This document shows, one piece after another, positions 3,296-33,525 of a stretch of 64,000 nucleotides of DNA (its first letter is position 1; each line of letters begins with the position of its first letter). The notes beneath the pieces are model-generated. The model made no database searches, was not told the DNA's origin, and was given only the letters and a program-made list of their open reading frames with translations. Source of the DNA: an uncultured delta proteobacterium (GTDB lineage: Bacteria; Myxococcota; UBA727; VGSZ01); the NCBI GenBank assembly GCA_963775425.1, contig CAVZJB010000010.1:1-64000 (forward strand), written 5' to 3'. The translations under genes were made by a program, and so were the position numbers.

Positions 3296-4224
3296 TGTTC
3301 GCGCTCACTCTTCTCGTCGCCGTCGGCGTGCCGTTCGAGCACGGGTCCGTCAACGACGCGCTCGCCAAGGCCCACACCGACGGGCGCCGCGTGCTCGTCT
3401 ATGCCCACGCGTCCTGGTGCGGCCCCTGCAGGCGCTTGAAGGCCGAGGTCTTCGACACCGCCGAAGGTGAGAGCGCCTTGAAGGACGTTCACGTCGTGAG
3501 CCTCGACAGCGACACCGCCGCAGACCGCCCCTATCTGCGCGCCCTCCATGTGATGGGCTACCCGACGCTCATCGTCCTTCGACCGGACGCAAGCGAGGTG
3601 GACCGCATCGTCGGCTACGGCGACCGCCGGCGCTTCATCCTTCGACTCGCGCCGCTCCTCAAGGTCGAGCTCACCCTCGACCAGCTCCAAAGAAAGCGCC
3701 GGGAAACGGAAGGCGATGAGGCGCGCGCCTTGATCGACGTCGACATCGCGCGCGCGATGCTGAGGACGGGCCGGCGCGAGGAGGCGGAGACACTTCTCGA
3801 GGACGTCGCGGCCGAGCCGCTTCCGGCCGCCGCCGAGGCGCTCTTTCGCCTCGGTGTCCTCCTTGACAAGAAGGACGGCCCTTCCGTCTCCTACAACGTC
3901 TGGCGCGAGCTCGCGACGCGCTTCCCGTCGTCACGCAGGGCTCCGTTCGCCGAGAGCGCCTACGCCGACGCCCTTCACGCGCTCCACGATCGCTTCCCGA
4001 ACGGCGACCAGCTCGCCTACGTGTTCTTGCGCAGCCGTTACACCGCGAGCCGCGGCGGCTCCATCGCTGCGGCGCGCCGCCTCGAGAACCTCGTCGAGCT
4101 CTCCATCGCGCGAAACATCCAACGCGAGCTCTCACGCGCGGAGGTCCAGGACGCGCTCGCGAGGCACACCATCGACGCCCAGGAAGCCGGCGAGCTGATG
4201 CGACGCCTGAAGAAGTCGCGGTAG
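3295..4224 (+). CDS. Thioredoxin-family protein with TPR-like helices (paralog of the upstream gene)
   Basis: TGATG overlap with the upstream gene; HASWCGPC, GYPT, shared VWRELAxRFP motif. Confidence 0.85.
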   Translation: MFALTLLVAVGVPFEHGSVNDALAKAHTDGRRVLVYAHASWCGPCRRLKAEVFDTAEGESALKDVHVVSLDSDTAADRPYLRALHVMGYPTLIVLRPDASEVDRIVGYGDRRRFILRLAPLLKVELTLDQLQRKRRETEGDEARALIDVDIARAMLRTGRREEAETLLEDVAAEPLPAAAEALFRLGVLLDKKDGPSVSYNVWRELATRFPSSRRAPFAESAYADALHALHDRFPNGDQLAYVFLRSRYTASRGGSIAAARRLENLVELSIARNIQRELSRAEVQDALARHTIDAQEAGELMRRLKKSR

Positions 4225-4410
4225 CCGCAGCCGGCTCGACCAGGGCGCTCTCCTTCCGGGGCCGACGGCCGCCGTCGACGGGTCGCGCGGCACCCTGCGC
4301 CTTCACACGTGCATCGCCGGTGGCGCGCGTGTGGACGAGCGCCGGCGCTCCACGCAGCCGCGTCCTGACGGCAGGCTCCGACAGGCACGGTCCTCGCTTC
4401 ATCCGCCGCG

Positions 4411-5409
4411 ATGCCCATGCCGAGCCCTCCGCCCCTCCTGGTCCTCTGCGCGCTCGCCCTCCCCCTCGCCGCGTGCGGCGCGCCCGACCCCGCCGTCCTC
4501 GTGCTCGACACGGACCTGCACCGGACAAGCAGCGTCGCATTTCACGATCCCGGCGGTCACCGGGTTGACGTCGACGGCGCGGCCGGCGTCGACGACGACA
4601 TCCTCGTCACGCTCAGACGCGAGACCGGCGAGAGCCGCACGGCCACGAGCCCGATCCTCGGGGTGCCGACGTCGGTCGCCATCGTGCACGGCGTCGTCGC
4701 GCGCGTCACGCGCGCGGGAGACGTCGTCTGGACGCTACAGGCCAAGGCCGACGCCGGCGTCGACTGCAACGCGTCCGCGTTCGTGACGGCCGACGGCGTG
4801 CTCCTCAACGTCGACTGCCCGAGCGGGAGCTTCGCCGGGGCGTCCGGCGGCAACGTCGTCGTCGACGCCGCGACCGGCGACGTGCTCGGCGAGGCTCCCC
4901 CGGATGATCCGGGCTTCTCGTGCTTCGTGCTCCCGCCCGTCGACGTCGGCGACGGCACCGTCGTCGGAGCGCTCATCGACAGCGTCGCGCGGGGCGCGCT
5001 CGTGGACGGGTGCGTGCAAGACGCCGTGTGGACGAGCGCGTCGACCGTGAGGCCGACGAGCAACGCGTCGCTGCACATCGTCGGCGACCGTGTCCTCGTC
5101 GCATCCGAGGCCACGTCCATCGGCACGATGAGCTACCTCGCGCTCGATCTCGCGTCCGGCGAGCAGCTCGACAGCGTCACCGACGCCGGCGTCATCTCGC
5201 TCCCCGCGATCGACGGCTGGTTCGGGCAGGACACGCTCGACGTCGATCAGGGAATGCATATCCAGCACCGCGACGTACACGGCCTGCCGACGGCCGAGCT
5301 CGACGCCGACGGCCTGACCATGCTCGACACCTCCACCACGCGCGACGCTCTCTTCGTCGGCGGCGACGCGGGCGACGGCGCGCCCACCGTGGACTTGCCG
5401 CACGAGTAG
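4411..5409 (+). CDS. Lipoprotein, possible PQQ-like beta-propeller
   Basis: Lipobox PLAAC; beta-rich repeats VVDAATG and LALDLASG. Confidence 0.7.
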   Translation: MPMPSPPPLLVLCALALPLAACGAPDPAVLVLDTDLHRTSSVAFHDPGGHRVDVDGAAGVDDDILVTLRRETGESRTATSPILGVPTSVAIVHGVVARVTRAGDVVWTLQAKADAGVDCNASAFVTADGVLLNVDCPSGSFAGASGGNVVVDAATGDVLGEAPPDDPGFSCFVLPPVDVGDGTVVGALIDSVARGALVDGCVQDAVWTSASTVRPTSNASLHIVGDRVLVASEATSIGTMSYLALDLASGEQLDSVTDAGVISLPAIDGWFGQDTLDVDQGMHIQHRDVHGLPTAELDADGLTMLDTSTTRDALFVGGDAGDGAPTVDLPHE

Positions 5410-5600
5410 ACGGCGGAGCTGAGCGTCGGCCCCGCGCGCGGAGCTCCGTGGCCACGAGCGACGCGTACGTCAGCCCGCTGCTCGCCGTCGGCGGCGGCGC
5501 CGCGCTCGGCGACGAGCCCGTCACGGGGCGCTTGCTCGTCGCCTCCTTGCTCCGTCGTCGCGTCACCCGCCCTGGTGCTGCGGCGCAGCCGCGGGCCGGC

Positions 5601-6873
5601 TCAGGGGTGCACGTGGAAGTCGGGCGTGAACGTGGAGCTGAGGGTCCAATCCGAGAGCGCCATCGTCGTGCTCGGGGTCGTGACCTCCACGTTGCGCTCG
5701 GCGGACTGACCCGAGAGCTGCCACGGCGCGCCGCTTCCGTCGACGCCGATGACGCCGTAGACGTCGATGAGCTCGTCTCCGAAGAAGAGCGCGATGACGT
5801 CCGTGCCGTCGAACTGAAGGCTCGGCACCTCGGCGTCGAAGGTACTCCCGGGAAACGCGTCCTCGAACGCCGCGGCGTCCGAGACGATCGTGAACTGGCA
5901 TGTGCCAACAGTCCCAGGTGTTGCGGCGGGAATGACCAGGCCGTCGGGGATGGCGGCGAGCCGCGGGGTCGTGCTGCCGCCGCTGAAGACCTCGACGCTC
6001 ATGTCCACGAGCGTCATGGGGTGCAGCGTCGTGTTGTAGAGCTCGACGTACTCCGCGTTTGGCGCCGCCGGCACCGCCACCTCGCTGATGAACACGCGCG
6101 CTCGAGCGGGTGTCGCGACGAGGGTGATGTCATCGATGGCGCTGCCGTCCTTGGAGTTGAAACACGCGACGTAGGTCCCGCAATCGTTCGTCACATCGAG
6201 CCGGGCGCACGGAGGGGTGAGGCCCCCGTCGTCGTCGGTGCCCAGCAGCGTGCCCGCGGCGTTGTAGAAGCGACCGAAGGTGTCACCGGGACAGCCGGTC
6301 CCGCCGTCGGTGGTCCCGAGGCTGACCGTCGCCGCAATCCCGATGGTGTAGCGGAAGCACTTCTCCCCTTGCTCGGGAAGACTGAAGGTCGCGACGAACG
6401 GGAGCGTGACGTCCTCGACGTCGCCCTCGCCTTCACCTTCGCCTTCGCCTTCTCCTTCGCCCTCTCCTTCGCCCTCTCCTTCGCCCTCTCCTTCACCCTC
6501 TCCTTCACCCTCTCCTTCACCTTCTCCTTCGCCCTCTCCTTCTCCTTCTCCTTCGCCTTCTCCTTCGCCCTCTCCTTCGCCTTCGCCTTCGCCCTCTCCT
6601 TCGCCCTCTCCTTCGCCTTCGCCTTCGCCCTCGCCCTCGCCCTCGCCTTCGCCCTCACCTTCGCCCTCGCCCTCGCCCTCACCTTCGCCCTCACCTTCGC
6701 CCTCGCCTTCCCCTTCGCCGCCACCGGCGTGGCGCTCGACGCCAGGCGCAGCGGCCGGGCCGTTGTCCGCGCCGCAGCTCGTGAGCGTGCCGAAGAGGAG
6801 CGGCGCAACGATGGCCGTGGCGACCTCGCGGGGCCCCCAGAATCCGAAGGGGGTTCAGGAGGCGGAGAGCCAT
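5601..6873 (-). CDS. Lipoprotein with (GE)n linker, DDDGG/PPC-like module and lamin-tail domain; apparent 1-nt frameshift near the 5' end
   Basis: Frame open 6854-5601: lipobox-like GTLTSC, GE repeat, [12 protein letters not shown] motif VFISEV...AEYVELYN...FTP. The ATG at 6873 with SD GGAAAGGTG lies in another frame. Confidence 0.75.
6421..6719 (-). repeat. Hexanucleotide GGN-GAR tandem repeat encoding about 50 Gly-Glu units
   Basis: Visible (TCGCCC/TCTCCT/TCACCT)n on the + strand. Confidence 0.95.
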
Positions 6874-7004
6874 GGCGCGTCACCTTTCCGTCGAGCTCGA
6901 CGACCAAACGTGTCTTTGCGCGGCGTCCGCCGCGCGCACCGTGACCATCAAGAAGCGAGCCGAACGCGAAAAGAGCTGGCGCCGCAGCTCTCCGGGCCGA
7001 CCGC

Positions 7005-8072
7005 TCATCCCCGCCGGCGACGCCGCGCAGGGCCGACGGCGAGCACCAGCAACGCGACGAACAGCGCGCTCGGCGGACCCGCGGCGCCGCAGCCGGGAGC
7101 GGCGTCGGGGCCGTCGGCGGGTGGGTCATAGAACGCGGCCGGGACCACACCCGGGGCATCGCACCAGACGCGGCTGCCGTCGTCGCAGCGCGCGCGCATG
7201 TGTTGATCCATCCAGTCGAAGTACGCGTCCACGCGCGTGTCGATGCCGCCTTTGCTGCAGCCGGTCGCGTCGTACTGATGCGAGGTCACGCCGATGACGC
7301 GGCTCGCGACTGCGTGGGGAGTGACGACGTCGGCGTACGTCGGCCCGCCGGAGTCTCCCTGGCACTTGCGCGTGCTCGCGACGTCGCTGCCGATCTGCAT
7401 CTCGGCGTCACCGAGCTCGTTGACGGTGGTGTCGCCGCACAGCTCGACGCCCACCGTGTCCGCGGGCGCGTTCGCATCGGGCGTTTGCTTGCCCCAACCG
7501 GCGACGCCGACGGCCGTGCCGGCGGCGAGCTGCGCCGCCTCGTCCTTTTGAATCACCACCGCGGGTGTCACGCTCGTGATGGGCGCGTCGAGGAAGAGGA
7601 GCGCGATGTCTTTCACGGCGCCGAGCCCGGGCGCACAGCAACCCTGGATGTTGAAGTCCTCATGCGGCACGAGCTCGCGGACGGCGACGGCGTCCGCAGG
7701 GAGCTGCGTCGCTGGCGCGTCGGGTCCCGCGAGCGCGCTCAAGTCGCTCTCGAACGTGACCCAGTAATCCGCGCGGGAGACGGTGTCGCGGCCGCCCGTG
7801 AGCAGCTTCGGATCCGTGCAGTGCGCGGCGGTGAGGACGACGTCGGGCGCGATGAGCGTGCCTGTGCACATCAAGCGCGTGACGTCCTCGACCCCCGTGC
7901 CGGGGTCGAGGGTGGCGTCGAGGATGATGGCGACCGCGCTGGGGAACCGGCCGTCGCAGGAGGAACCGTTGATGATCGCTTCCTGCCGCGCCGGCGGCGC
8001 CTCACCCTCGAGGGACGCGGGCCCGCACGCGGCGGCGAAGACAAGCAGGACGACAGGGGGAAGGGTCCGCAT
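7005..8072 (-). CDS. Trypsin-like (S1) serine protease lipoprotein with MYXO-CTERM-like tail
   Basis: IING, LTAAHC, KDIAL and CQGDSGGP motifs; lipobox AAAC; C-terminus GC...hydrophobic...RRRRG. Confidence 0.92.
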
Positions 8073-8273
8073 GGCGCCGGATGCTAAGGGCCCGTTCGCC
8101 CGCGTCGACCCTCGACAACATCGGTCGATTGTCGAGGTGCATTCACCGTCGAGCGTGACTGCAACCAGCTCACCTGCGCGGCCGCGGCGTCGACGTGCGG
8201 AACCCGGAGCGTTCCAAACGGCGCGGCGCTTTCCACGACGCCGCCCGATAGCATCGACGCTCGGAGGTGGACC

Positions 8274-8702
8274 GTGCACGACGTCATCGGCGTGTTCCCG
8301 ACCAAGGTCGATACGTGGTTTCTAGCGCTCTTCTGGGGCATCGCTGTCGCCTGCTTCGCGGGCGCGCCGCTCATTCGCAGACGGAGCACGGGCGCCGCCG
8401 TGCTGCTCGGTGCCATCGGCGTCCTCTTTGTCGGGGTCGGCTTCAACGCCCGTTCCCTTCGATACGAGGTGCGAGCCGACGGCGCCGTCGTCACGGCGGG
8501 CACCGTCGTTCCCGAAAGCGGCGTCCTCTTCCATGCCGGCGACGTCGTCGACGTCAGGCCGACCCACGAAAGCAGCTCCGCCCCGGCGTCGTCGCTCGAT
8601 CGACTGCGCGTGGACCTCAAGGGTGGCCGCAGGGTGCTCGTCTCGCCGGCGGACAAGGAGGGGTTCAAGCGGGCACTCGTCCAGGCGGGCGCTTCGCTCT
8701 GA
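8274..8702 (+). CDS. Membrane protein with bacterial PH domain
   Basis: FPTKVDTW, two TM helices, SAPASSLDRLRV...VLVSPADKEGF pattern of bPH family proteins. Confidence 0.75.
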   Translation: MHDVIGVFPTKVDTWFLALFWGIAVACFAGAPLIRRRSTGAAVLLGAIGVLFVGVGFNARSLRYEVRADGAVVTAGTVVPESGVLFHAGDVVDVRPTHESSSAPASSLDRLRVDLKGGRRVLVSPADKEGFKRALVQAGASL

Positions 8703-8709
8703 TCGCCCG

Positions 8710-9555
8710 CTACCTCCGGGTGAGCGTGTAGCCGTCCTTCTCGAGCAGCGCGGGCAGCCCTCGGTCAGTCAGCATGTGCATGAAGCCGGTGGCGATGAAC
8801 GCGTCTCCCGTGTCGATCTCGTCTTCCACTTGCGACAGCCACGCGTCGTGGCGAAAGACGACGTCGTCGTAGTACGCGGGACGGCTCGTCATCTCGCCCT
8901 CGTCGAAGGCGAGGGCGGTCATCTGGTCCACGTCGCCGGCGCCGTAGGCGTCGGCCCAGGTGAGGTGCTCGGCCACGGCCGCATCGGGGTCACGGGCAGT
9001 GCGGAGCAGGACCTCGAGGCCGTCGTCGAAGCCGACGCCGTTGAGCGTTGCGACCTGGTCCTGCCAGGTCTCGAAGAAGGCGAGGTGCACGCCGTCGTCG
9101 GACGCGCGCTCCACGAGGGTGGCGTCGATGGGCGAAACGGGCGGGAGGCGGCGGACGATCGCTTGCGACTCGAGGAACCACGGCTGCAGGTGCGGCGCCT
9201 CGCCGAGGCCAACGATGCCGACGAGCGCGGCGGAGACGAGGGTCCACTCGTCGTCCGTGACGGAGTCGCGGACGGATTCGCCCGCGGGCAACGTGACGAG
9301 CCCGTTGAATTCCCCCGGGTCGACGCTGCGCACGTCGGCCTCGGTGACGAGCACACGCGACTTCCCGAGCATGTCCCACAGCTCCGGCGCGAGCACGCTC
9401 GCGTCGGCCTCCGCGTGCATGGTGCCGAGGAGGACGCTGGTCTTGCCGTCACGCTCCACCGTCCAATAGGGCGGGTGCGGCGCGCCTTCGCACCCGAGAA
9501 GCGCCGCGCACGCGAACGCGGCGATTGGGACGAAGGACCCTGCGGAGAGACGCAT
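8710..9555 (-). CDS. TraB/GumN family lipoprotein
   Basis: WTVERDGKTSVLLGTMH, LQPW, FETWQDQ, FIATGFMH...GLPALLEKDGY. Confidence 0.85.
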   Translation of the reverse strand: MRLSAGSFVPIAAFACAALLGCEGAPHPPYWTVERDGKTSVLLGTMHAEADASVLAPELWDMLGKSRVLVTEADVRSVDPGEFNGLVTLPAGESVRDSVTDDEWTLVSAALVGIVGLGEAPHLQPWFLESQAIVRRLPPVSPIDATLVERASDDGVHLAFFETWQDQVATLNGVGFDDGLEVLLRTARDPDAAVAEHLTWADAYGAGDVDQMTALAFDEGEMTSRPAYYDDVVFRHDAWLSQVEDEIDTGDAFIATGFMHMLTDRGLPALLEKDGYTLTRR

Positions 9556-9698
9556 CGCTCCTCGAGGATAGCGCGCCGAGGGAGCGGAGGCCTCGCGGGC
9601 TCGTCGCGTCGCGACGGCACCGACTCTCGATCGCCGCGTGACGACGGGCACCATTTCACCCGCGCCGGCCCCGTCGGACGCGCGGCCGTCGTGGTAAC

Positions 9699-10475
9699 GT
9701 GCGCGCCGTGCTCGCACTCGTTCTTGCCGCAGCGGTCGCCACGGCCGCACCTCCCCCACCCCAGGAGGTCCGCGTTCTCGTCCTCGACTTCAAGCCGTCG
9801 GGCGGCGTCGCGGCCGACGTGGTCGAAAACATCACCGGCTTGTCCGCAGCAATTCTGTCGGAAGATCCCCGCCTCGAGGTGCTCGCGGGCCCCGACCTCC
9901 GGCAGCTCATCGACCTCCAGAGCCAGAAAGACGTCGTCGGCTGCGCCGGCGACAACGCTTCGTGCATCGCCGAGCTGGCGGGCGCGCTCGACGCCAAGCT
10001 CGTCGTCATCGGCAACGTCGGCTACCTCGGCAGCACGCTGAACTTGAACATCGTCCTTTTCAACCAGGCCACGGGCCAGAACGCCGGCCGCCGTGCCGTG
10101 CAGGCCAGGGACCTCTCCGAGCTGTCGACGTCGCTGCGCGCACCGCTGCGCGAGCTCATCGCCGGCGTCCTCGGCGAAACGCCCGAGGTGGAGAGCGCCG
10201 GACCGTCGGCGGGGCTCATCACGCTCGTCGCCGGCGGCGCAGCGATCGCCCTCGGCGGAGTCGCCCTCGCCGTGAGCGCGTACCCCGCCGTCGCCATCGC
10301 CGGGGAGGAGGGCAATTTCACGGCTGGTGAGACCGCCGCCCTTGGCCGCGCCTCCGACCTGCAGACCTCCTGGTATGACAGCGGCCTCGATACCGGGCTC
10401 GTCGCTGCCGGCTCCGTCCTGCTCGTCGCCGGGGGCGCCGCCGTCGCCGGCGGCCTCGCCATGGGGATCGAATGA
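9699..10475 (+). CDS. Secreted TolB-N/CsgG-like fold protein with C-terminal hydrophobic helices
   Basis: Signal peptide; VLVLDF...GC..D.SCIAELAGALDAKLVVIGNVG; overlaps the next start (ATGA). Confidence 0.75.
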   Translation: MRAVLALVLAAAVATAAPPPPQEVRVLVLDFKPSGGVAADVVENITGLSAAILSEDPRLEVLAGPDLRQLIDLQSQKDVVGCAGDNASCIAELAGALDAKLVVIGNVGYLGSTLNLNIVLFNQATGQNAGRRAVQARDLSELSTSLRAPLRELIAGVLGETPEVESAGPSAGLITLVAGGAAIALGGVALAVSAYPAVAIAGEEGNFTAGETAALGRASDLQTSWYDSGLDTGLVAAGSVLLVAGGAAVAGGLAMGIE

Positions 10476-25811: not shown

Positions 25812-26924
25812 ATGCTCCGCCTCCCCTCGGTTCTGCTGGCGCTCGCCGCCGCCTGCGCGCCGCCGGCCGGCCCCGCCGAGCCCGTCGGCGCCACGGCTTC
25901 GACCGGCGGCGACGACGACGCACGAGCGGCACGTGAGCCGGTCTTCAGCGCGTGCCGGCCGCCACCGCCCGCGCCCATCGACGATCTCGTCGAGCTCGCG
26001 GACGTCTGCGACGGCCCCGTCTGCGAAGGCGATCTCACCCGCGTGCGCGATTGCCGGATCATTCGTGGCGACATCATCCTCTCGAGCCCGCGGTTGGCGC
26101 ACGCGTCCTTCCCGAACCTCCGCGAGCTCCACGGCAAGCTCATCGTCCACGCGCCGCGCCTCACGTCCCTCGACCTCCCGCGCCTCACCCTCGTCACCGA
26201 GAGCGTCGGCCTGGCGTCCGCGGAGCTGTCGGATCTGGACGGCCTGTCCGCGCTCGAGGAGGTCTACGGCGACGTCGGCATCTCCGACACGCGGCACATC
26301 GCGAGCCTCGCCGGCCTCGCGTCGCTGCGACGCGCCGGCGGGATCGAGCTGTTCGGCAACCGGGCGCTCGAGGACCTCCGTGGCCTCGAGCGCATCACGG
26401 AGCTGCGCGGCTCCCGGAGCCCCGGGCTCCACGTCGAAGACAACCCCGCGCTCGTGAGCCTCCACGGCATCGAGCGCCTCGTGCGCACGCAGGCCATCGT
26501 GCTCGCCGACGACCCCGCGCTCGCAGACATCAGCGCGCTGTCGTCGGTGGTGGACACCGGGGACGTCCTCTCCGTCACCGGCTGCCCCAAGCTCACGAGC
26601 CTCGCGCCGCTCGCGTCGATCCGGTCCGAGGCGGAAGCGCCGGCGGGCCTCCTGGAGATCCGCGACGACGACGGCCTCGTCACCCTCGACGGGCTCAACG
26701 GCTTCGTCGGGCTGTCTTCCGGCCTCGACATCTCCGGCAACGACGGGCTCACCAGCATCGCGGCGCTGTCGTCGCTGCGAGTCGTCGGGGGCATCGTCGG
26801 GCTGCGCGACAACCCCGCGTTGAGCGGGTGCCAGGTGCAGGAGCTCGTCGCCCGGCTGCGCGCAAGCGGCTTCGACGGCGTCCTCGAGGAGGGCGGCAAC
26901 CTCGACGGCGGCCCGTGCCCGTGA
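25812..26924 (+). CDS. Receptor L-domain/leucine-rich-repeat lipoprotein
   Basis: Lipobox LAAAC; repeats such as NPALVSLHGIERL and NDGLTSIAALSSLRVVGG. Confidence 0.85.
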   Translation: MLRLPSVLLALAAACAPPAGPAEPVGATASTGGDDDARAAREPVFSACRPPPPAPIDDLVELADVCDGPVCEGDLTRVRDCRIIRGDIILSSPRLAHASFPNLRELHGKLIVHAPRLTSLDLPRLTLVTESVGLASAELSDLDGLSALEEVYGDVGISDTRHIASLAGLASLRRAGGIELFGNRALEDLRGLERITELRGSRSPGLHVEDNPALVSLHGIERLVRTQAIVLADDPALADISALSSVVDTGDVLSVTGCPKLTSLAPLASIRSEAEAPAGLLEIRDDDGLVTLDGLNGFVGLSSGLDISGNDGLTSIAALSSLRVVGGIVGLRDNPALSGCQVQELVARLRASGFDGVLEEGGNLDGGPCP

Positions 26925-26927
26925 GGC

Positions 26928-27521
26928 TCAGGTCCACGCGCGCTTGGCCACCCGCTGGACAATCGCCCGCGGGACCCCCACGAGCCGCGCGGCGCGCGAC
27001 TTGTTGTCCCCCGCGCGCTTGAGCGCGTGAGCGATGACGGCGCTGCGAATGCCCCGCTCGAGCTCGAGGAGCGGCACCTTGCCGACGAAGGGCGCCACCG
27101 CCGCGGAGATCGGCGGCGGCTGTTCGTCGAGCCCTGCGGCGACGGCGTGCAGCAAGCACGCGGCGGTGCAGGGCAATGGCACGAGCTGCCGCGCCCCCGC
27201 GCGGCCGAACGCGAACGCCTCCGCGGCGTGCACGGCGCGGCGATGCACGGCGATGACGGCGGGCGCCGGGACGGCGAGCTGGGCGGCGCGCGCGACGTCG
27301 AGCGCGTGCTCGCAGGCGTCGATGGCGACGACCATGAGCATGCACGGCGCCTTGTCGACCAGGACGTCGATGACCTCCCGCAGCGTGGCCGCCGCGAGGG
27401 TGGAGAAGCGCATGCCGAGCGTGGACAGGAGGAAGCCGCGGACCTCCTCGTCCGCGGAGACCACGAGCGCCGCCCCCCACGGCGAGCGCTCTGCCAACCG
27501 TGAAGGCGGAGAGCCGTCCAT
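26928..27521 (-). CDS. Atypical (pseudo-receiver) response regulator with Fis-type HTH
   Basis: Receiver-like fold lacking DD, the phospho-Asp and KP; C-terminal ALKRAGDNKSRAARLVGV. Confidence 0.8.
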   Translation of the reverse strand: MDGSPPSRLAERSPWGAALVVSADEEVRGFLLSTLGMRFSTLAAATLREVIDVLVDKAPCMLMVVAIDACEHALDVARAAQLAVPAPAVIAVHRRAVHAAEAFAFGRAGARQLVPLPCTAACLLHAVAAGLDEQPPPISAAVAPFVGKVPLLELERGIRSAVIAHALKRAGDNKSRAARLVGVPRAIVQRVAKRAWT

Positions 27522-27557
27522 GTGAGGACATCATCGAAGGCGGCCGGCCGGGGGGAA

Positions 27558-27575
27558 ACGCAAGTTTTCTTGCAC
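27558..27575. promoter_or_regulatory. Palindromic operator candidate ACGCAAG-TTTT-CTTGCAC
   Basis: Sits between the kinase and pseudo-RR genes; same GCAAG-N4-CTTGC core as 29268-29285. Confidence 0.55.
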
Positions 27576-27580
27576 GCGGC

Positions 27581-28879
27581 TCACGCCGCGCCGAGATCGA
27601 TGGTGACGCACGCGCCGCCGCCGTCGACGTTGCCGCGGGTGAGCGTGCCGCCGCACGCGTGGACCAGGCGGTCCGCGGTGAACAGCCCGAGCCCGGTCCC
27701 CGTCTTCTTCGTCGTGCGGAAGCTCTCCAACGCCGACGCCAACAGCTCCTCGGAGAAGCCCGGCCCGTCGTCGCGCACGGCCACCTGCACGGCGCCGCCG
27801 GCCGACAGCGCCGCGCTCACGAAGACGCGGGTCGCGGCGCGGCGGCCGTCGCCCTCGCACGCGTTCACGAGGAGGTTTTCGAAGATGCGCAGGAGGGTCG
27901 TGCGGCCGCCGACCACGCGCACGCACAGCAGATCGTCGACGGCGTCGAGCTCGATCGCGACCCGGGCGTGCGCGCGGGACACCGACGCCACCGCCTCCGC
28001 GAGAGCAGCGCGCACGCGTACGCTCTCGGAGCGAAGCTGTCTCTCCGACGCACGGGCGCGCGCCTGGAGGAACAGGTCATTGAGCTTGGCGATGCTCGCG
28101 CGCAGCACGGAGAGGCGCTCCACCGTGAGCGCGTCGGCGTCGCGCGCGAGCGAGCGCTCGAGCGCCGCCAGCTCGAGGCTCGCGGCCGTGAGCGGGCTCT
28201 TGATGTCGTGCGCGATTCCGAGCAGGTCGCGAATCATTTCCTCGAGCTCCTGCCCGCGCTTGGCTTCCACGTCGAGGAGCTGCGCCGCCAGCGCCCTTTG
28301 CGTGCGAAACAACTCGGAGCGCCGCTGGTCCGCCTTCACCGCCGACGTCCCCGCGACGAGCCCGGCCGCCACCGACGCCGGCAGCGACAGCACCCACAAG
28401 GCGACGTGACCGGGGTCGTGGTTGACGACGAGGGAGACGGCGGCGGTGGCCGCGAACGAGAGCAGGAAGAACGGCCAGCGGAGGCTGATGCGCATGAGCT
28501 GGGCGTGAAAGAGCGTGGTCAGCAGATAGAAAGCGGCGAAGACGGCGGCGCCGGGCATGCGCGACAGCGCCACGAGGAGCGCCGGGAAGAGCTCGACGAG
28601 GACGTTGCCGGCGAGGGACAGCGCCACGTGGAGCTTCACGGCGCGGGCGCGGACGAGCGCGGCGTCGACGGCGGCGAACGCGGGCAGGGGGAGAAACGAG
28701 GCCAGCGCCCAGGGAAACGACACGCCGGTGGCGCGCGCGACGGGGGGAACGTAGGCGCACACCGCGAGCACGACGCCGACGAACGCGGACAGCACGATCC
28801 ACGTGAACGGGCCCCGCGCGGACGTCTCGAAGGCGCCCTCGACGGAGAGGTGCCGTACCCAGGAGGCGGGCGTTTCCAT
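27581..28879 (-). CDS. Polytopic membrane sensor histidine kinase
   Basis: About 6 TM helices with short loops; H-box IAHDIKSPL, N-box FENLLVNA, G1 DDGPG, G2 GTGLGL. Confidence 0.93.
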   Translation of the reverse strand: METPASWVRHLSVEGAFETSARGPFTWIVLSAFVGVVLAVCAYVPPVARATGVSFPWALASFLPLPAFAAVDAALVRARAVKLHVALSLAGNVLVELFPALLVALSRMPGAAVFAAFYLLTTLFHAQLMRISLRWPFFLLSFAATAAVSLVVNHDPGHVALWVLSLPASVAAGLVAGTSAVKADQRRSELFRTQRALAAQLLDVEAKRGQELEEMIRDLLGIAHDIKSPLTAASLELAALERSLARDADALTVERLSVLRASIAKLNDLFLQARARASERQLRSESVRVRAALAEAVASVSRAHARVAIELDAVDDLLCVRVVGGRTTLLRIFENLLVNACEGDGRRAATRVFVSAALSAGGAVQVAVRDDGPGFSEELLASALESFRTTKKTGTGLGLFTADRLVHACGGTLTRGNVDGGGACVTIDLGAA

Positions 28880-28902
28880 CGTCGCCGGATTGTACGTGCG
28901 AA

Positions 28903-29211
28903 TCAGCCGTCGATGGTGACGTAGTAGCCGGACAACTTGTTGATGGCGTTGGCGTCGGCCTGACCGCGCTCGAGCATCTCGTCGAGCTCGTTGATGAGCT
29001 CGGGGTTCCCGCGCTGGACCTCCGTGAATTCCACCTGCCCGCCCGCGAGCACGATGTGCATCGCCTTCACCACCGGCAGCAGGTGTTTGTTGAAGGCCAT
29101 CTCGCCGAGCGGGCCCTCGAACGCGCCCAGCTCTCGTGCCTTCAACATGTATTGAAGCATCGAATAGGCGAGTGGGTAGGAAACGAGCTGCGGATCGTCT
29201 GCGTAGCCCAC
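28903..29211 (-). CDS. Small hypothetical protein (about 102 aa) co-oriented with the kinase
   Basis: GTG start with AGGAG SD; strongly coding-like codons; ends SGYYVTIDG. Confidence 0.75.
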   Translation of the reverse strand: MGYADDPQLVSYPLAYSMLQYMLKARELGAFEGPLGEMAFNKHLLPVVKAMHIVLAGGQVEFTEVQRGNPELINELDEMLERGQADANAINKLSGYYVTIDG

Positions 29212-29267
29212 GAGATCTCCTGCTCGAACGGATGTGCCATTTGTCCGCCGGAGAGCCGGTCCGGTCA

Positions 29268-29285
29268 ACGCAAGCGCGCTTGCGT
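29268..29285. promoter_or_regulatory. Perfect 18-bp palindrome ACGCAAGCGCGCTTGCGT in the divergent promoter
   Basis: Self-complementary; lies between the divergent starts at 29211 and 29356. Confidence 0.6.
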
Positions 29286-29355
29286 GTCTGCCGGCGAAGC
29301 ACGGTGGGGCGCGGCTGCGGACGCTCGTGCGCGCCCGCTACGATCGTTCGACGAC

Positions 29356-30930
29356 ATGAGCGCCGGCGCCGTCTACCGACACGTCCTCTCACGCGTGATG
29401 CGCCTCGGGCTCGGCGACAACGCCCGCCGCGACGTCACCGCCGCGCTCGAGGCGGCGCGCAAGGACTCGCTGCTCACGCTCCTGTACGAGGCGGCGCACG
29501 AGGCCGGCGTGCGCGACGACCTTCTTTTGTGCCGCGCCGGCGGCGCCTTCTGCGCGTTCGCCGCCGGCAACCTCGCCGACGACCTCGTCGACGGCGACTG
29601 CAGCTACCTCGACCCGGCGGTGCGGCTCGCGCCCACCGTGCAGTGGCTCCTGCAGAACCTCGCGTACGCGCTCCTCCTCGAGGGCGGCGTCGACGGCGAG
29701 CCCCTGCGGCGCACGGCGGAGCTGATGGCGCAGGCGGCCGGGCCGCAACAGGACGAGGTGCGGGAGACGCGCTGGACCGCGAGGCGCTACGTCGACGTCG
29801 GCGAGGGCATCCTCGGGCGCCAGTGGCAGGCGTACCTCGTGGCGCTGTGGGCGGGGACGCCGCTCGCCGGCGAGGCGGAGGCGTTCGGCATGGCGCTCGG
29901 CTTCGCCGGCCACGTCGCCCTCGACGTCCGCAGCCGCGACGCGCGCTTCTCCTCCATGGGGCCCGCCGAGCAGGAGCGGGTGCTCGAGCGCGCGCGGGCG
30001 AGCCTGTCCGTGCTCGAGCGCTCGGAGCGCCGCATCGCCGCGCTCACCGCGCAGGGCGTGCGGCCGGCGCTGCGGCGCGCGGCGGTGGCCGCGTATTACG
30101 ACGACAAGACCACGCGCATCCTCGATCGCTACGGCCCGGGGCCGCGCGTCCACTACCACACTGGTGTTTTCGATTCGCCCGGCCTCGAGGCATTGCGGTT
30201 GCTCTCCCGCGACGCGCTGCGCGCACGCATGAAGGCGGCGCAGGAGGCGCTCCTGCACGACGCCCTCGAGGCGTGGGGTCTCACCGGGGAGCTTGTGGGC
30301 AAGCGCGTGCTCGACGCCGGCTGCGGCCTCGGCGGGACGTCGCTGCTGCTCGCCGCCGCCGGCGCGCGCGTCACGGCGCTCACCATCTGCGCGCCGCACG
30401 TCGCCGTGGTGAGCGACCTCGCCCTGCAGGCCGGCGTGTCGGAGCGCGTGGAGGCGCGCTGCGGCGCCGCGGAGGAGCTCGCCGACCGGCGCGCCTGGGA
30501 CGCCGTATTCGCCGTGGAATCATCGTGTTATTTCGATCGCGAGAGGTTCTTCCACGCCATGCGGCGCGCGCTGAAGCCCGGGGGCAACATTCACATCGTC
30601 GACCTGTTCGCCGGACGTCCCGAGGTGAAGGCGGGCTTCGATCGCGTCTGGAAGACGGACGTCGGGACGCTCGCGGGCTACGACGCTGCCGCGCGCAAGG
30701 CGGGCTTCGCGCGCACGGCGACGACGGACGTGAGCGCGCGTTGCGCGGGCTTCTGGGACCTCACGCGCGCGGACAGCCTGCGGCAGCTCGCCGGCGCGCC
30801 GACGGCCGCGGAGCGTGAGCGCCTCGAAGCCTCGCTGCGCGCGCACGGCGACTTGCAGGCGCGCGCGCGCGACGGCGGCTTGCTTCACCTGCGTGTGTCC
30901 TACGAGCGCCTCGCCCGGGGACGGGCATGA
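29356..30930 (+). CDS. Fusion of a class I isoprenoid-synthase-like (DDxxD) domain and a SAM-dependent methyltransferase (GPP/sterol MT-like)
   Basis: N-terminal helical domain with NLADDLVDGD; C-terminal YYD...VHYHTG, VLDAGCGLGG, AVESSCY, LKPGG. Confidence 0.8.
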   Translation: MSAGAVYRHVLSRVMRLGLGDNARRDVTAALEAARKDSLLTLLYEAAHEAGVRDDLLLCRAGGAFCAFAAGNLADDLVDGDCSYLDPAVRLAPTVQWLLQNLAYALLLEGGVDGEPLRRTAELMAQAAGPQQDEVRETRWTARRYVDVGEGILGRQWQAYLVALWAGTPLAGEAEAFGMALGFAGHVALDVRSRDARFSSMGPAEQERVLERARASLSVLERSERRIAALTAQGVRPALRRAAVAAYYDDKTTRILDRYGPGPRVHYHTGVFDSPGLEALRLLSRDALRARMKAAQEALLHDALEAWGLTGELVGKRVLDAGCGLGGTSLLLAAAGARVTALTICAPHVAVVSDLALQAGVSERVEARCGAAEELADRRAWDAVFAVESSCYFDRERFFHAMRRALKPGGNIHIVDLFAGRPEVKAGFDRVWKTDVGTLAGYDAAARKAGFARTATTDVSARCAGFWDLTRADSLRQLAGAPTAAERERLEASLRAHGDLQARARDGGLLHLRVSYERLARGRA

Positions 30931-31487
30931 GGATCGCCCGCGACCTGAAGACCGCGCTGATCGTCGAGGACGACGACGCCCTCGCGAGGGCCCTCGTCCA
31001 CGCCGTCGCCGCGCGCGGCATCGCCGGTCACGTGGTGTCCACGCTCAAGGACGCCGAGCTGGTGCAGGGCGAAGGCTGGGACCTGGCGCTCGTCGACGTG
31101 AACCTCCCCGACGGCTCGGGGGTGACGCTGTGCCGTTCGTTGGCCGCGCAGCGCCCCTGCCCGGTGATCGTCGCCATCTCCGGCGCCGCCACGGGGCGCG
31201 ACGGCTTCGCCCTCGCCCGCGCCGGCGTCGGCGAATTCGTCGAGAAGCCGTTCGACGACGACGACCTGTGGCGCGCCATCGAGAAGAACTCCGGCGTCCC
31301 GCTCGAGGTGACCGTGCCGAGCCTCGTCGGCGCCGTCCCCATGCGCGACGCCCACCGCGCGGTCCGGCGCCGCATGCTCGAGGAGGCCCTCGCGCGCAGC
31401 AACACCATCACCGACGCCGCCAAGCTCCTCGGCGTCACCCGCCAGGCCATCCAGCAGGCGATCGACGATCTCGAGGAAGCGGAGTGA
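30927..31487 (+). CDS. Response regulator (receiver + Fis-type HTH, RegA/PrrA-like size)
   Basis: LIVEDD, LVDVNLPDGSG, ISG, EKPF; AAKLLGVTRQ; ATGA overlap with the upstream fusion gene. Confidence 0.92.
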   Translation: MRIARDLKTALIVEDDDALARALVHAVAARGIAGHVVSTLKDAELVQGEGWDLALVDVNLPDGSGVTLCRSLAAQRPCPVIVAISGAATGRDGFALARAGVGEFVEKPFDDDDLWRAIEKNSGVPLEVTVPSLVGAVPMRDAHRAVRRRMLEEALARSNTITDAAKLLGVTRQAIQQAIDDLEEAE

Positions 31488-31515
31488 GCGGGCGGCGCCG
31501 AGGCGGGCCCCCAGC

Positions 31516-31917
31516 GCGAAACGACGACGGCATCGTCGCCGCCGGCGCGTAGGGCGCCCCCTCGTGGGGCGCGTCGGGCGCCTCGACGGCGCCGGGTCAC
31601 TCCGATGCGGGGGGCAAGCCCCCGCCCTACGGGTCGTCGACGTAGCCGAGGACGCGAACGGGTTCGAGACGCGCGCCGGGTGTGACGGTTTCCGTGTGGC
31701 ACCGCAGCGGCGGGTTCGAAACGCGCGCCCGGTGTGACGATTTCCCAAACGCGCTGCGAAACGACGACGGCATTGCGGCCGGCGCGTAGGGCGCCCCCTC
31801 GTGGGGCGCGTCGGGCGCCTCGATGGCGCCGGGTCACTCCGATGCGGGGGCAAGCCCCCGCCCTGCGGGTCGTCGACGTAGCCGAGGACGCGAACGAAAC
31901 GCGCGCCCGGTGTGACG
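31516..31917 (+). repeat. Tandem near-identical repeat units (31516-31688 and 31756-31917), each containing a GTAG-type REP doublet
   Basis: GCGAAACGACGACGGCAT...GTAGGGCGCCCCCTCGTGGGGCGC...GCAAGCCCCCGCCCT(A/G)C...GCGCGCC(C/G)GGTGTGACG in both units. Confidence 0.9.
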
Positions 31918-31956
31918 ACTTTCAAACGGCCCCGCGGAGGATCGGCGACGGGTGAT

Positions 31957-32078
31957 GGGCGACGCGAGAGAGATTGAGGAGACGAGGAGCAAGGAACGAA
32001 GAACACGAGGTGCGCGGAAGCGACATCGACTCGGACGCTCGGCCGGCGGCCAGCGGATCGCGGCCGGCGGAGATCGGA
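31957..32078 (+). repeat. Direct repeat copy 1 with CGGNNNN heptamer array
   Basis: GGGCGACGCGAGAGA...CGGCCGG CGGCCAG CGGATCG CGGCCGG CGGAGAT CGGA; second copy at 33108-33238. Confidence 0.85.
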
Positions 32079-32122
32079 CCTCGACGCGCGGCGAGGCCGA
32101 GCCCCGCCGCGCGCGCCGAGCC

Positions 32123-32455
32123 TCAGCGAAACTTGTAGAGCATGGCGCAGAAGTGGTCGCAGCGATCCTGGCCGACGTCGCGCTCGGCGGCGGTGACGGC
32201 CTCGCTCAGGAACGCGATGTCGAGGATGGCGCTCACCTCGCGCGCGCTCCCGGCGGCGATGTCGAAGTACCGCGCGCGCTCCTTCGCCGACTGCTTGCGA
32301 CAGCCCTCGGAGAAATTGAGCGTGATGGATGACGACGCGCGGCGCAGTTGGTCCTTGAGGTCCGCGAAGCCCGGCGGAAACTGCTTCGCGAGCTGGAAGC
32401 ACTGGCCGTAGATCTCCAGCGACTTCCCGTAGAGGCGAGTGTCTCGGTAGTCCAT
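32123..32455 (-). CDS. Four-helix-bundle protein (23S rRNA IVS-protein/TIGR02436-like)
   Basis: LKDQLRRASSSITLNFSEG...ERARYFDIAAGSAREV; [10 protein letters not shown]. Confidence 0.92.
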   Translation of the reverse strand: MDYRDTRLYGKSLEIYGQCFQLAKQFPPGFADLKDQLRRASSSITLNFSEGCRKQSAKERARYFDIAAGSAREVSAILDIAFLSEAVTAAERDVGQDRCDHFCAMLYKFR

Positions 32456-32542
32456 GTTCGATCCTCCTTCGAAGGCCGAGCACGGCGGCCTTCAAAGCCT
32501 GCGTGGCCGCCGCGCGCAGGCCGAGAAGGAGGACGAACATGG
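32452..32542. promoter_or_regulatory. Inverted repeat / three-way junction sequestering the SD and ATG of the minus-strand four-helix gene
   Basis: CCATGTTCG(A)TCCTCCTTC (32452-32470) pairs with GAAGGAGGACGAACATGG (32525-32542), enclosing two hairpins. Confidence 0.7.
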
Positions 32543-32645
32543 CCTCGGGGTCACTCGCCGTTTCAGGAAGTGCTGTCGGTCGTAGGCCGGTTCTCGACGA
32601 GAGAGTGCTCGCGCTTCATGGCCTGGCCCGTGTGGTCTTCGCGAA

Positions 32646-32701
32646 CCCCGACGTGGGGCCCTCAAGCGCTTCGCGCTTTTGACGAGGGCCCCACGTCGGG
32701 G
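32646..32701. promoter_or_regulatory. 18-bp perfect stem with inner hairpin just upstream of the plus-strand four-helix gene
   Basis: CCCCGACGTGGGGCCCTC/GAGGGCCCCACGTCGGGG enclosing AAGCGC-TTC-GCGCTT. Confidence 0.7.
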
Positions 32702-32721
32702 ATCCGCAAGGAGAGCAGGCC

Positions 32722-33054
32722 ATGAAGCACGAGCACTCCCGCATCTACCTCACCTCGCGCGCGCTCAACCGCGAGGCCGCCGCGCTCGCCAACCGGCTGC
32801 CGCGCGGCTTCAGCAACCTGAAGGACCAGCTGCGCCGCGCGTCGGCCTCGGTGACGTTGAACTTCTGCGAGGGGAGCCGGCACGAGTCGCTCGCGGAGCG
32901 TGGGCGCTACTTCCGGATCGCGTCCGGGAGCGCCGCCGAGGTGAGCGCCATCGCGGATGTCGCGGAGGACTTCGGCGTCATCGCGCCCGAGCAGCACGCG
33001 GCCATCAAGGACCACTGCAATCACCTGTGCGCGATGCTGCGGCTCTACCGGTGA
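32722..33054 (+). CDS. Four-helix-bundle protein (paralog, 110 aa)
   Basis: LKDQLRRASASVTLNFCEG...ERGRYFRIASGSAAEV; SD AAGGAG. Confidence 0.92.
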   Translation: MKHEHSRIYLTSRALNREAAALANRLPRGFSNLKDQLRRASASVTLNFCEGSRHESLAERGRYFRIASGSAAEVSAIADVAEDFGVIAPEQHAAIKDHCNHLCAMLRLYR

Positions 33055-33107
33055 TGGCCGCTCGGCGGCGGAGCTCTGCGGAGCTTCGCCGCTCTCTCGA
33101 TCGGGAA

Positions 33108-33238
33108 GGGCGACGCGAGAGATGCGGGAGAGGTCGAGGGCCCGCCAGAACGAGCACACGAGGACACGAGGGACACGAGGGCGGCCCGGATCGGATCCGC
33201 GGCCGGCGGCAAGCGGCTCGCGGCCGGCGGAGATCGGA
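33108..33238 (+). repeat. Direct repeat copy 2 with CGGNNNN heptamer array
   Basis: 33200-33238 matches 32040-32078 at 37 of 39 positions; GGGCGACGCGAGAGA is shared. Confidence 0.85.
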
Positions 33239-33307
33239 GCGAGACCGCCCCCAGGCTCAACGGGTTCGAGACGCGCGCCCGGTGTGACGATTTGCGAACC
33301 GCGGTGC

Positions 33308-33383
33308 GTAGGGCGGGGGCTCGTCCCCCGCATCCTCACGCGCGCCCGCCGACGGAAAAGCGGGGGACGAGCCCCCGCCCTAC
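33308..33383. repeat. GTAG-family REP doublet (REPIN-like) with perfect 24-bp inverted arms
   Basis: GTAGGGCGGGGGCTCGTCCCCCGC / GCGGGGGACGAGCCCCCGCCCTAC. Confidence 0.85.
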
Positions 33384-33423
33384 GGGTCGTCGACGTAGCC
33401 GACGTCGCGAACGGTTGGAAACG

Positions 33424-33497
33424 CGCGCCCAGGAGGACTCGAACCTCCGACCCTCAGCTTAGAAGGCTGATGCTCTGTCCAACTGAGCTATGGGCGC
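33424..33497 (-). tRNA. tRNA-Arg(UCU), CCA not encoded
   Basis: GCGCCCATAGCTCAGTTGGACAGAGCA-TCAGC-CTTCTAA-GCTGA-GGGTCGGAGGTTCGAGTCCTCCTGGGCGCG forms a complete cloverleaf. Confidence 0.96.
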
Positions 33498-33525
33498 ACG
33501 GCGCGCATGGTAGCGTCTTTGCCCG

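Follow-up and report, generated by a model that had tools for sequence, protein, structure and literature searches.

A small orphan protein, a histidine kinase with six transmembrane (TM) segments and two enzyme domains, one a prenyl-diphosphate methyltransferase and the other predicted to adopt the isoprenyl-diphosphate synthase (IDS) fold, were shown by gene-content comparison to constitute a conserved and repeatedly rearranged unit across Myxococcota. We describe this unit at positions 26928-31487 of a 64,000-nt stretch (hereafter the window, G+C ~73%) of contig CAVZJB010000010.1 (GCA_963775425.1) from an uncultured delta proteobacterium (Myxococcota; UBA727; VGSZ01), where the two enzyme domains are fused and two regulator genes join the set. 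The left arm, on the minus strand, comprises the gene of the small orphan protein (28903-29211; 102 residues, without known family), followed after 23 nt by that of the kinase (27581-28879; 432 residues, with Pfam HisKA and HATPase_c domains) and after another 59 nt by a pseudo-response regulator gene (26928-27521; 197 residues, with a Fis-type helix-turn-helix (HTH) domain, Pfam HTH_8, at the C-terminus). The right arm, on the plus strand and 144 nt away from the start of the small gene, comprises the fusion gene (29356-30930; 524 residues, with Pfam methyltransferase matches in the C-terminal part) and a response regulator gene (30927-31487; 186 residues, with Pfam REC and a Fis-type HTH), the ATG of which overlaps the fusion stop by 4 nt (ATGA, as read from the coordinates), an arrangement of translational coupling. 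An earlier note on this DNA, made from the sequence alone, had drawn the same five genes in two divergent arms, and all of them are backed by third-position GC (0.85-1.00 in frame) and domain matches. We tentatively propose, with slightly less than even confidence, that the locus encodes an autoregulated two-component circuit, self-contained and centred on a non-canonical isoprenoid pathway.

The unit was delineated in a set of loci gathered by scans of species genomes and metagenomes and supplemented with four regions from related genomes; 48 distinct loci that carry the N-domain (the N-terminal part of the fusion), window included, remained after removal of one identical contig (L083 = L004), and locus content was read by hidden Markov model searches of six-frame translations. 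Small protein and kinase both accompany the N-domain in 36 of the 48 loci. Five have the kinase only, three of them on contigs that end inside the kinase (L094, L109, L119) and two decayed (L071, L152); two have the small protein only (L127 and L063, that of L127 being found by hhalign at 99.2% probability); and the five with neither (L039, L084, L091, L095, L105) all lie on contigs cut next to the match. Among 116 methyltransferase-only loci (BezA-like, mostly from Streptomyces), none has a homologue of the small protein, the kinase or the regulator. On the level of genomes, in tallies that include one unpublished genome (G195, on which nothing else here depends), the small protein was found in 66 of 401 sampled Myxococcota genomes, all 66 being among the ~70 with an N-domain match; the genomes with an N-domain and without a small-protein match are G218, G049, G009 and G272, and, within the window's own family, all 10 genomes besides that of the window lack both N-domain and small protein. 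Carriers of the core set include Myxococcus xanthus, Stigmatella, Hyalangium, Pyxidicoccus and relatives. Co-occurrence of fusion, kinase and small protein, on which the earlier note had staked its reading, thus turned out to be near-universal in loci and genomes alike.

The set also stays together in at least five gene orders while the flanking genes change between loci. Most Myxococcaceae have small protein, histidine kinase (HK), N-domain and methyltransferase (MT) genes in this order (small-HK-N-MT) with ATGA stop/start overlaps; other arrangements are fusion-(DyP)-small-HK (L005, L006, L085), HK-small-N-MT (L167), one with the methyltransferase inverted (L153), the divergent layout of the window and L166, and an order with the response regulator (RR) at the front, RR-small-HK-fusion (L092, L151). 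Since the unit spans 14 genera and at least five arrangements, chance adjacency of its genes is untenable, even with related genomes not being independent of each other. RNA libraries provided a weak hint that the four genes of the Myxococcus homologue are expressed together: compared with four libraries, the M. xanthus-type locus L008 was bridged from small to MT gene by a ~4-kb contig in two, from different studies (X3, 4951-8965; X8, 5189-8929 and onwards), with contig ends close to the borders of the operon and the upstream gene on separate contigs; such contigs cannot prove a single transcript and have no bearing on the organism of the window, and the ~27-kb contigs of the other two runs (X1, X10) say nothing on transcription.

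Some loci differ in composition. A DyP-type peroxidase-like gene sits in the cassette of six relatives (L006, 4060-4911; L085, 5378-6235; L110, 3210-3974; L153, 2157-3026; L166, 5308-6204 on the minus strand; L127, 7631-9010), and tblastn at 1e-5 found none in the window. L127 (small-N-MT-DyP, G+C 54%) is flanked at 2454-5462 and 9280-9909 by SARP-type regulators (Trans_reg_C + AAA_16 + TPR), flanks that resemble actinomycete metabolite clusters. As for the decayed loci, L152 (5522-6732) has a frame that links a receiver start to a HATPase end, followed by an N-domain gene and by no methyltransferase, with the operator motif described below still upstream; in L071 (5383-8096), kinase and methyltransferase are kept, only the final 29 residues of the small protein are left and the N-domain is truncated.

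The C-terminal domain of the fusion (30085-30930, plus strand) was shown by profile comparison to be a member of the prenyl-diphosphate C6-methyltransferase family of BezA and C6-FPP-MT. Pfam matches fusion residues ~290-420 with several class I methyltransferase models, and a profile made from seven full-length fusion relatives (alignment A1) and searched against PDB chains placed BezA (7fbh, 2.3e-73) and C6-FPP-MT (9tb4, 6.5e-73) on top, with the third-best match at 5.6e-18 and the geranyl diphosphate (GPP) C2-methyltransferases at ~1e-12; the window sequence alone scored 173 bits with BezA and 160 bits with C6-FPP-MT over ~267 aligned residues. The NCBIfam model NF041943 (geranyl diphosphate 2-C-methyltransferase) reached 41 bits, below its curated cut-off of 400. 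BezA, the GPP C6-methyltransferase of benzastatin (7FBH), which neighbours a UbiA-type prenyltransferase, and C6-FPP-MT of Streptomyces varsoviensis (9TB4), an enzyme of farnesyl diphosphate (FPP), are alignable to the window domain over ~270 residues; both are stand-alone proteins of ~300 residues, whereas the window domain is fused to an IDS-fold domain and accompanied by a kinase and a small protein. GPGPRVH(Y/F)H, GCGLGG and the catalytic Glu are common to all three, being present in the window as GPGPRVHYH, the S-adenosylmethionine-binding LDAGCGLGG and AVESSCY (with the Glu), and G322-G327 and E388 are invariant in 7/7 full-length relatives. E388 is the equivalent of Glu165 of 9TB4, given as the deprotonating catalytic base in the available text on C6-FPP-MT, where His194 is described as pairing with this Glu by a hydrogen bond and genes of this type as adjoining class I terpene cyclases (PMC12929941). 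The residue aligned with His194 is Leu in the window (IVDLF) and Val in BezA; because BezA itself has Val, His194 marks the FPP enzyme, not the whole family. One entire genus (g63; e.g. G226:C1:9228791-9229624) matches with the methyltransferase part only, at E ~1e-47 to 1e-59 and without an N-domain match, inside open frames of ~800 residues that may represent a different fusion of a BezA-like domain.

For the N-domain (29356-30120, plus strand), Pfam gave no match in the first 255 residues of the fusion, PF00348 being without a match at E <= 0.1, and a sequence search against PDB chains returned chance-level matches only. An AlphaFold2 (AF2) model of these 255 residues, with the relatives as alignment, has a predicted local distance difference test score (pLDDT) of 90.6, and on the strength of this model we confidently assign the trans-isoprenyl-diphosphate-synthase fold. 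Bacterial farnesyl-diphosphate synthases rank first in Foldseek, with MoeN5 from rank 22 and 92 matches at E <= 1e-3, while the VIA search gave 2ftz (Thermotoga geranyltranstransferase) at Z 22.6 (root-mean-square deviation 2.9, 237 residues aligned), MoeN5 at Z 20.8, squalene/dehydrosqualene synthases at ~13 and class I terpene cyclases at ~12; there were 112 chains at Z >= 8, the best 40 all being prenyl synthases or prenyltransferases. The earlier note had called the protein a DDxxD prenyl-enzyme/methyltransferase fusion, which holds for the fusion, the fold and the first Asp-rich motif (D75-D76-L-V-D79, with D75, D76 and D79 invariant in 7/7 full-length relatives) but not for the second, which is degenerate (D190-x4-D195). 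Chain-elongating synthases bind isopentenyl diphosphate (IPP) through a motif of the GKRxR type; none is conserved ~40 residues before the first Asp motif, as read from alignment A1. We surmise that the N-domain is a candidate non-elongating prenyltransferase-like domain, because MoeN5 and the ComQ family, with one working Asp motif, prenylate non-IPP acceptors: in the parts of the sources available, MoeN5 is an IDS-fold enzyme that passes a prenyl diphosphate donor to a non-IPP acceptor (PMC7839719), and the ComQ family has an IDS fold in which one Asp-rich motif works and the second is a pseudo-motif (bioRxiv 10.64898/2026.08.29.745113). MoeN5, the head-to-middle prenyltransferase of moenomycin (5B02), has a compact fold of ~250-260 residues like that of the N-domain (237 aligned), at 16% identity and without a sequence-level match, and no glycolipid pathway lies near the window cassette. 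Fold and motif pattern also fit ComQ, with no ComQ-family chain in the fold lists and no sequence similarity.

Full-length fusions are rare, with 7 clusters in a search space of 5.8 billion proteins; the N-domain is found in 192 representative clusters, mostly stand-alone proteins of ~242 residues. Its fusions vary, with the order MT-N in P0110, a DyP-type peroxidase as partner in P0105 and a read-on from a HATPase domain in P0147, and in Myxococcus the N-domain and the methyltransferase are split genes with a stop/start overlap.

The kinase of the window has six hydrophobic segments in residues 21-182, joined by short loops and without a periplasmic domain by hydropathy, which agrees with the ~6-TM kinase lacking a periplasmic domain that had been described before. 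The H-box is canonical (AHDIKSPL). An alignment of 20 kinase homologues (A4) shows no variation in the N, G1 and G2 ATP-binding boxes (N339, D370-G374, G396-L399) or at R130 and P136; the loop between TM4 and TM5 is basic (consensus HGRLHRVTPRxPF) and is predicted by the positive-inside rule to face the cytoplasm. Mean pairwise identity is 0.49 in the TM part, 0.47 in the dimerization and histidine phosphotransfer part and 0.60 in the catalytic and ATP-binding part. A sensor domain conserved to this extent suggests, as judged from the alignment, one conserved ligand. Pheromone-type receptors are as a rule hypervariable in their membrane sensor domain, and a membrane domain as conserved as the catalytic part counts against sensing of that type. 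When the first 195 residues were compared in the ESM Atlas, the nearest domains were the MASE2 and 6TM_PilS sensor domains (0.95 and 0.94), a likeness in language-model features that serves as a lead only, the kinase having no Pfam match to MASE2 or PilS-type 6TM families at E <= 0.1; for PilS itself, the ligand is embedded in the membrane. The homologues of L005, L007, L010, L016, L035, L036 and L076 lack the canonical His, and five of these seven have a His two residues earlier.

Turning to the regulators, the receiver of the window's response regulator is complete (EDDD acidic pocket, D in LVDVN, S in ISG, K in EKPF), and by their alignments kinase and regulator together carry all canonical two-component residues. 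The pseudo-regulator is a paralogue of the regulator (26% identity by BLASTP, E 7e-08), with HTH_8 as its sole Pfam match and none for its receiver; in an alignment with four orthologous regulators (A6), its residues in the columns of the phospho-acceptor Asp, the Ser/Thr and the Lys are Ala, His and Leu, a degeneration that makes the name given in the earlier note a fair one. No counterpart of the pseudo-regulator was seen in any other locus. Receiver genes stand directly beside the cassette in 8 loci, comprising 4 with REC-Fis proteins, 1 with a remnant and 3 with REC only: the REC-Fis orthologues outside of the window are in L092 and L151 and in L166, from a genome of the window's order with the same divergent layout plus a DyP-like gene, whereas in L034, L130 and L153 a gene with REC only stands ahead of the small gene. 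Regulator and pseudo-regulator can accordingly not be upheld as core parts, the regulator joining only in the window's subgroup.

The same subgroup is marked by a cis-element. The palindrome GCAAG-N4-CTTGC, which the earlier note had spotted twice in non-coding DNA, indeed occurs at 27560-27573 and 29270-29283 (2 found vs. 0.06 expected; 0/100 shuffles reached 2), and proved to be a conserved element of the subgroup loci. It is part of a longer motif, AACGCAAS-N4-STTGC, both window copies reading AACGCAAG-N4-CTTGC: copy 1 (AACGCAAGCGCGCTTGC, 29267-29283, plus strand) lies in the divergent promoter region and copy 2 (AACGCAAGTTTTCTTGC, 27557-27573, plus strand) within the 59 nt that separate the stop of the kinase gene from the start of the pseudo-regulator gene. 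This 17-mer has exactly two copies in the 8.26-Mb genome, both at the locus, with the reversed control pattern occurring once. An identical 18-mer (CAACGCAAGCGCGCTTGC) is found at the same position of the L166 divergent promoter, in DNA that has otherwise diverged, and CAACGCAAC-TTTG-GTTGC occurs in L092 (twice), L151 and L152, just upstream of or beside the regulator gene, so that the AAC-flanked motif stands next to cassette genes in 5/5 loci with a REC-Fis regulator or its remnant (window, L166, L092, L151 and L152). Three other matches to GCAAS-N4-STTGC in 1.7 Mb of loci are all without the AAC flank and come from methyltransferase-only loci; palindrome and S-variant are absent from Myxococcus/Hyalangium-type loci without regulator, and the element therefore belongs to the regulator-bearing subgroup only. 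AACGCAAS-N4-STTGC has the appearance expected of an operator for a dimeric HTH regulator whose regulon is private, one putative site serving both divergent operons and the other preceding the pseudo-regulator gene, binding in each case being inferred. The most AT-rich stretch of the locus (28800-29400; G+C 0.63-0.65 vs. ~0.73-0.78 around) covers the small gene and this divergent promoter. Scans of 27480-29400 for sigma-70 promoters and intrinsic terminators gave 0 sites each, and a sigma-54 -24/-12 promoter around the palindrome was rejected, its spacing not fitting as judged by eye.

Neither Pfam nor NCBIfam has a family that matches the small protein, and the 124 clusters of its family are all 'hypothetical', none with a Pfam family, with the named sources all being myxobacteria, including Stigmatella aurantiaca, Corallococcus macrosporus, Hyalangium and Pyxidicoccus. 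Its gene is single copy in the window's genome; the GTG start lies six bases downstream of AGGAG, and the open frame reaches a TTG at 29268. Across 20 members (alignment A3), Y21, L28, G29, A50, H52, L55, A56, G57, G58, G68 and L76 are invariant, several of them within the conserved motif A-[LM]-H-H/I-V-L-A-G-G. The AF2 model has a pLDDT of 79, up to 94 in the core, and comprises three helices and a hairpin, followed by a disordered tail whose last 7 residues are variable (mean identity 0.23 vs. 0.48 for the core). Foldseek found no match to this model in PDB at E <= 0.001, and the best hit of a wide VIA search (Z 6.2 over 56 residues) is at noise level for helical models. The motif HHVLAGG resembles HxxKG, the motif of phosphotransfer (Hpt) domains, and an Hpt-like reading was entertained and dropped, because L127 and L063 retain the small protein beside the enzymes without having the kinase, and because its model is not a four-helix bundle. 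Because the protein is folded and conserved, with neither Trp (0/20) nor a Cys within the last 15 residues (0/20), and with no tail residue conserved, a ComX-like prenylated peptide is unlikely on sequence grounds; the prenylated-peptide branch of the earlier note finds no support. Kept beside the enzyme genes where the kinase is missing, and beside the kinase where the enzyme gene has moved, the small protein can only be called a putative obligatory partner of the cassette. Co-folded with the entire fusion in a run without controls, the small protein gave a score of 0.00, which speaks neither for nor against binding.

Taken together, the circuit that we tentatively propose would operate as follows. 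The methyltransferase would methylate a prenyl diphosphate of the GPP or FPP class; the N-domain may then ionise the methylated donor at its single DDxxD and transfer it to a non-IPP acceptor, or else may feed the methyltransferase. A lipophilic product or intermediate would stay in, or return to, the inner membrane, where the kinase could detect it via the conserved TM bundle and the basic cytoplasmic TM4-TM5 loop. On phosphorylation by the kinase, the regulator would bind both operators and control both divergent operons, giving feedback or autoinduction, with the pseudo-regulator, of the same HTH and presumably not phosphorylatable, modulating the same sites. The small protein may serve as subunit, carrier or adaptor and be an obligatory partner of enzyme or product. 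Going further, the locus could be the first isoprenoid-based autoinducer circuit in Myxococcota, with a released C-methylated prenyl compound partitioning into the membranes of neighbouring cells and being read there by the intramembrane kinase, and the small protein acting as lipid carrier or presenter; we consider this extension improbable. The earlier note is borne out in layout, enzyme type and co-occurrence, while sensing of the product and action between cells are putative; the folded, Trp-free small protein argues against the prenylated-peptide version.

Several observations weigh against the proposed circuit: 1) the canonical His is present in 13/20 kinase homologues and is E, Q, N or R in 7/20, a loss in some lineages which shows that phosphorelay is not the sole possible role of the kinase-like protein; 2) L127 and L063 have small protein, N-domain and methyltransferase without a kinase, so that the enzymes can do without this sensor; 3) most loci have no regulator in the cassette; 4) no exporter or receptor of an extracellular signal is conserved in the cassette flanks; 5) regulation by a cue would also place a sensor gene beside a biosynthetic operon; 6) the position of BezA W210, which gates chain length according to the available part of PMC10881772, is Phe in the window and Ile in 9TB4, leaving the chain length of the substrate undecided.

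The main rival explanation is that the kinase reads an unrelated membrane or envelope cue (fluidity, redox, stress) and switches on a methylated terpenoid, the product being output and not signal; we regard this as doubtful, though as a reading to be reckoned with. The product could then be a volatile, a component of a pigment or a lipid of the membrane; two-component genes are common inside biosynthetic clusters, the SARP-type flanks of the HK-less L127 suggest interchangeable regulators, and the accessory DyP-type peroxidase of 6 loci is like a tailoring enzyme of metabolite clusters. In architecture, kinase and regulator are also like the redox pair RegB/RegA (PrrB/PrrA, ActS/ActR), which likewise comprises a 6-TM kinase without a periplasmic domain and a REC-Fis regulator of ~185 residues. 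RegB/RegA-type models are the best or near-best NCBIfam architecture matches for both window proteins, yet the cut-offs were missed (NF033792, 57.6 vs. 350; NF033791, 45.1 vs. 250), with the kinase match confined to the cytoplasmic part, and the RegB motif GGxxNPF is absent from the window kinase. Against an unrelated cue stands the linkage of the kinase to the enzyme genes, which it accompanies in 41/43 judgeable loci, usually with overlapping stop/start and no regulator, and which is therefore tighter and odder than would be expected for a swappable regulator; the TM domain, conserved across the kinase family, and the lack of an extracytoplasmic domain argue in the same direction. Alternatively, the kinase-like protein might be mainly a structural or ATP-using membrane component (an anchor, or a device for product hand-over), with phosphorelay secondary in a few lineages including that of the window. 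We find this quite unlikely: the His losses alongside invariant N, G1 and G2 boxes, the lack of a regulator in most cassettes, the stop/start overlaps that join small protein, HK and N-domain, and the HATPase-N-domain reading of P0147, possibly a gene-calling artefact, would fit such a role, but in the window the H-box of the kinase is canonical and the kinase comes with a coupled regulator, with a pseudo-regulator and with an operator of its own, receiver genes adjoin the cassette in 8 loci, and HK-less cassettes exist (L127, L063).

Least probable, in our view very much so, is a lipopeptide pheromone of the ComQXPA kind, in which the N-domain would prenylate the small-protein tail with a methylated donor and the kinase would sense the processed lipopeptide. 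ComQXPA of Bacillus (and StheQ/StheX) likewise combines an IDS-fold prenyltransferase with one working Asp motif, a small protein, a polytopic kinase and a regulator, so that small protein, kinase and IDS-fold enzyme of the window parallel comX, comP and comQ; the ComQ-family fold, with its pseudo-second Asp motif as in the N-domain (available part of bioRxiv 10.64898/2026.08.29.745113), and the variable, disordered last 7 residues of the small protein (0.23 vs. 0.48 in the core) would be in line with it. The window cassette nonetheless differs from ComQXPA in that the small protein is folded and conserved over a core of ~80 residues with pLDDT up to 94, unlike a leader peptide, and has neither Trp, tail Cys nor a conserved tail residue; in addition, the sensor domain is conserved and not variable in the manner of pherotypes, the cassette has a prenyl-diphosphate methyltransferase on top, conserved peptidases or exporters are lacking and the host is didermic. 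The regulator HTH is of the Fis type, that of ComA being of the LuxR type.

The combination had not been recognised as a described system in the earlier note, and our search, with subscription-only literature and bioRxiv supplements outside its range, likewise found no description in print. To our knowledge, prenyl-diphosphate C-methyltransferases have so far been found with terpene cyclases or aromatic prenyltransferases; here the partner would be a compact IDS-fold domain with one Asp motif, fused in either order or coupled, which points to a new class of non-canonical isoprenoid products. A kinase whose sensor is a membrane bundle only and which travels with lipid-making enzymes is a rare candidate for intramembrane sensing of a defined lipid, and in the window's subgroup the whole presumed loop of kinase, regulator and private operator can be read from sequence. 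If the autoinducer reading were true, it would represent a widespread and unrecognised cell-cell signal in social bacteria, and the presence of the core set in the tractable hosts M. xanthus and Stigmatella aurantiaca makes the question of small-molecule coordination in myxobacteria testable.

The neighbouring genes of the window (transketolase-like, RraA, MBL, SRPBCC, LRR lipoprotein, intervening-sequence proteins and a Ser/Thr kinase) were considered as parts of the cassette and not counted, because they have no counterparts beside it in other loci. An Rfam search of 26000-33500 at E <= 0.1 returned a tRNA and sub-threshold chance matches. Directly behind the regulator gene, a non-coding unit of ~237 nt is tandemly duplicated at 31524-31896, the copies being 89-98% identical (families D1 and D3), and shorter repeats of 42 nt lie at 31665, 31717 and 31895. 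Given that none of the remaining 10 genomes of this family yielded the cassette, the region around 32250-32700, where G+C falls to ~0.66, may be an island border. This dip coincides in part with a divergent pair of genes for 23S rRNA intervening-sequence proteins (PF05635; 32123-32491 on the minus and 32683-33054 on the plus strand), beyond which the tRNA gene is located (33424-33497, minus strand).

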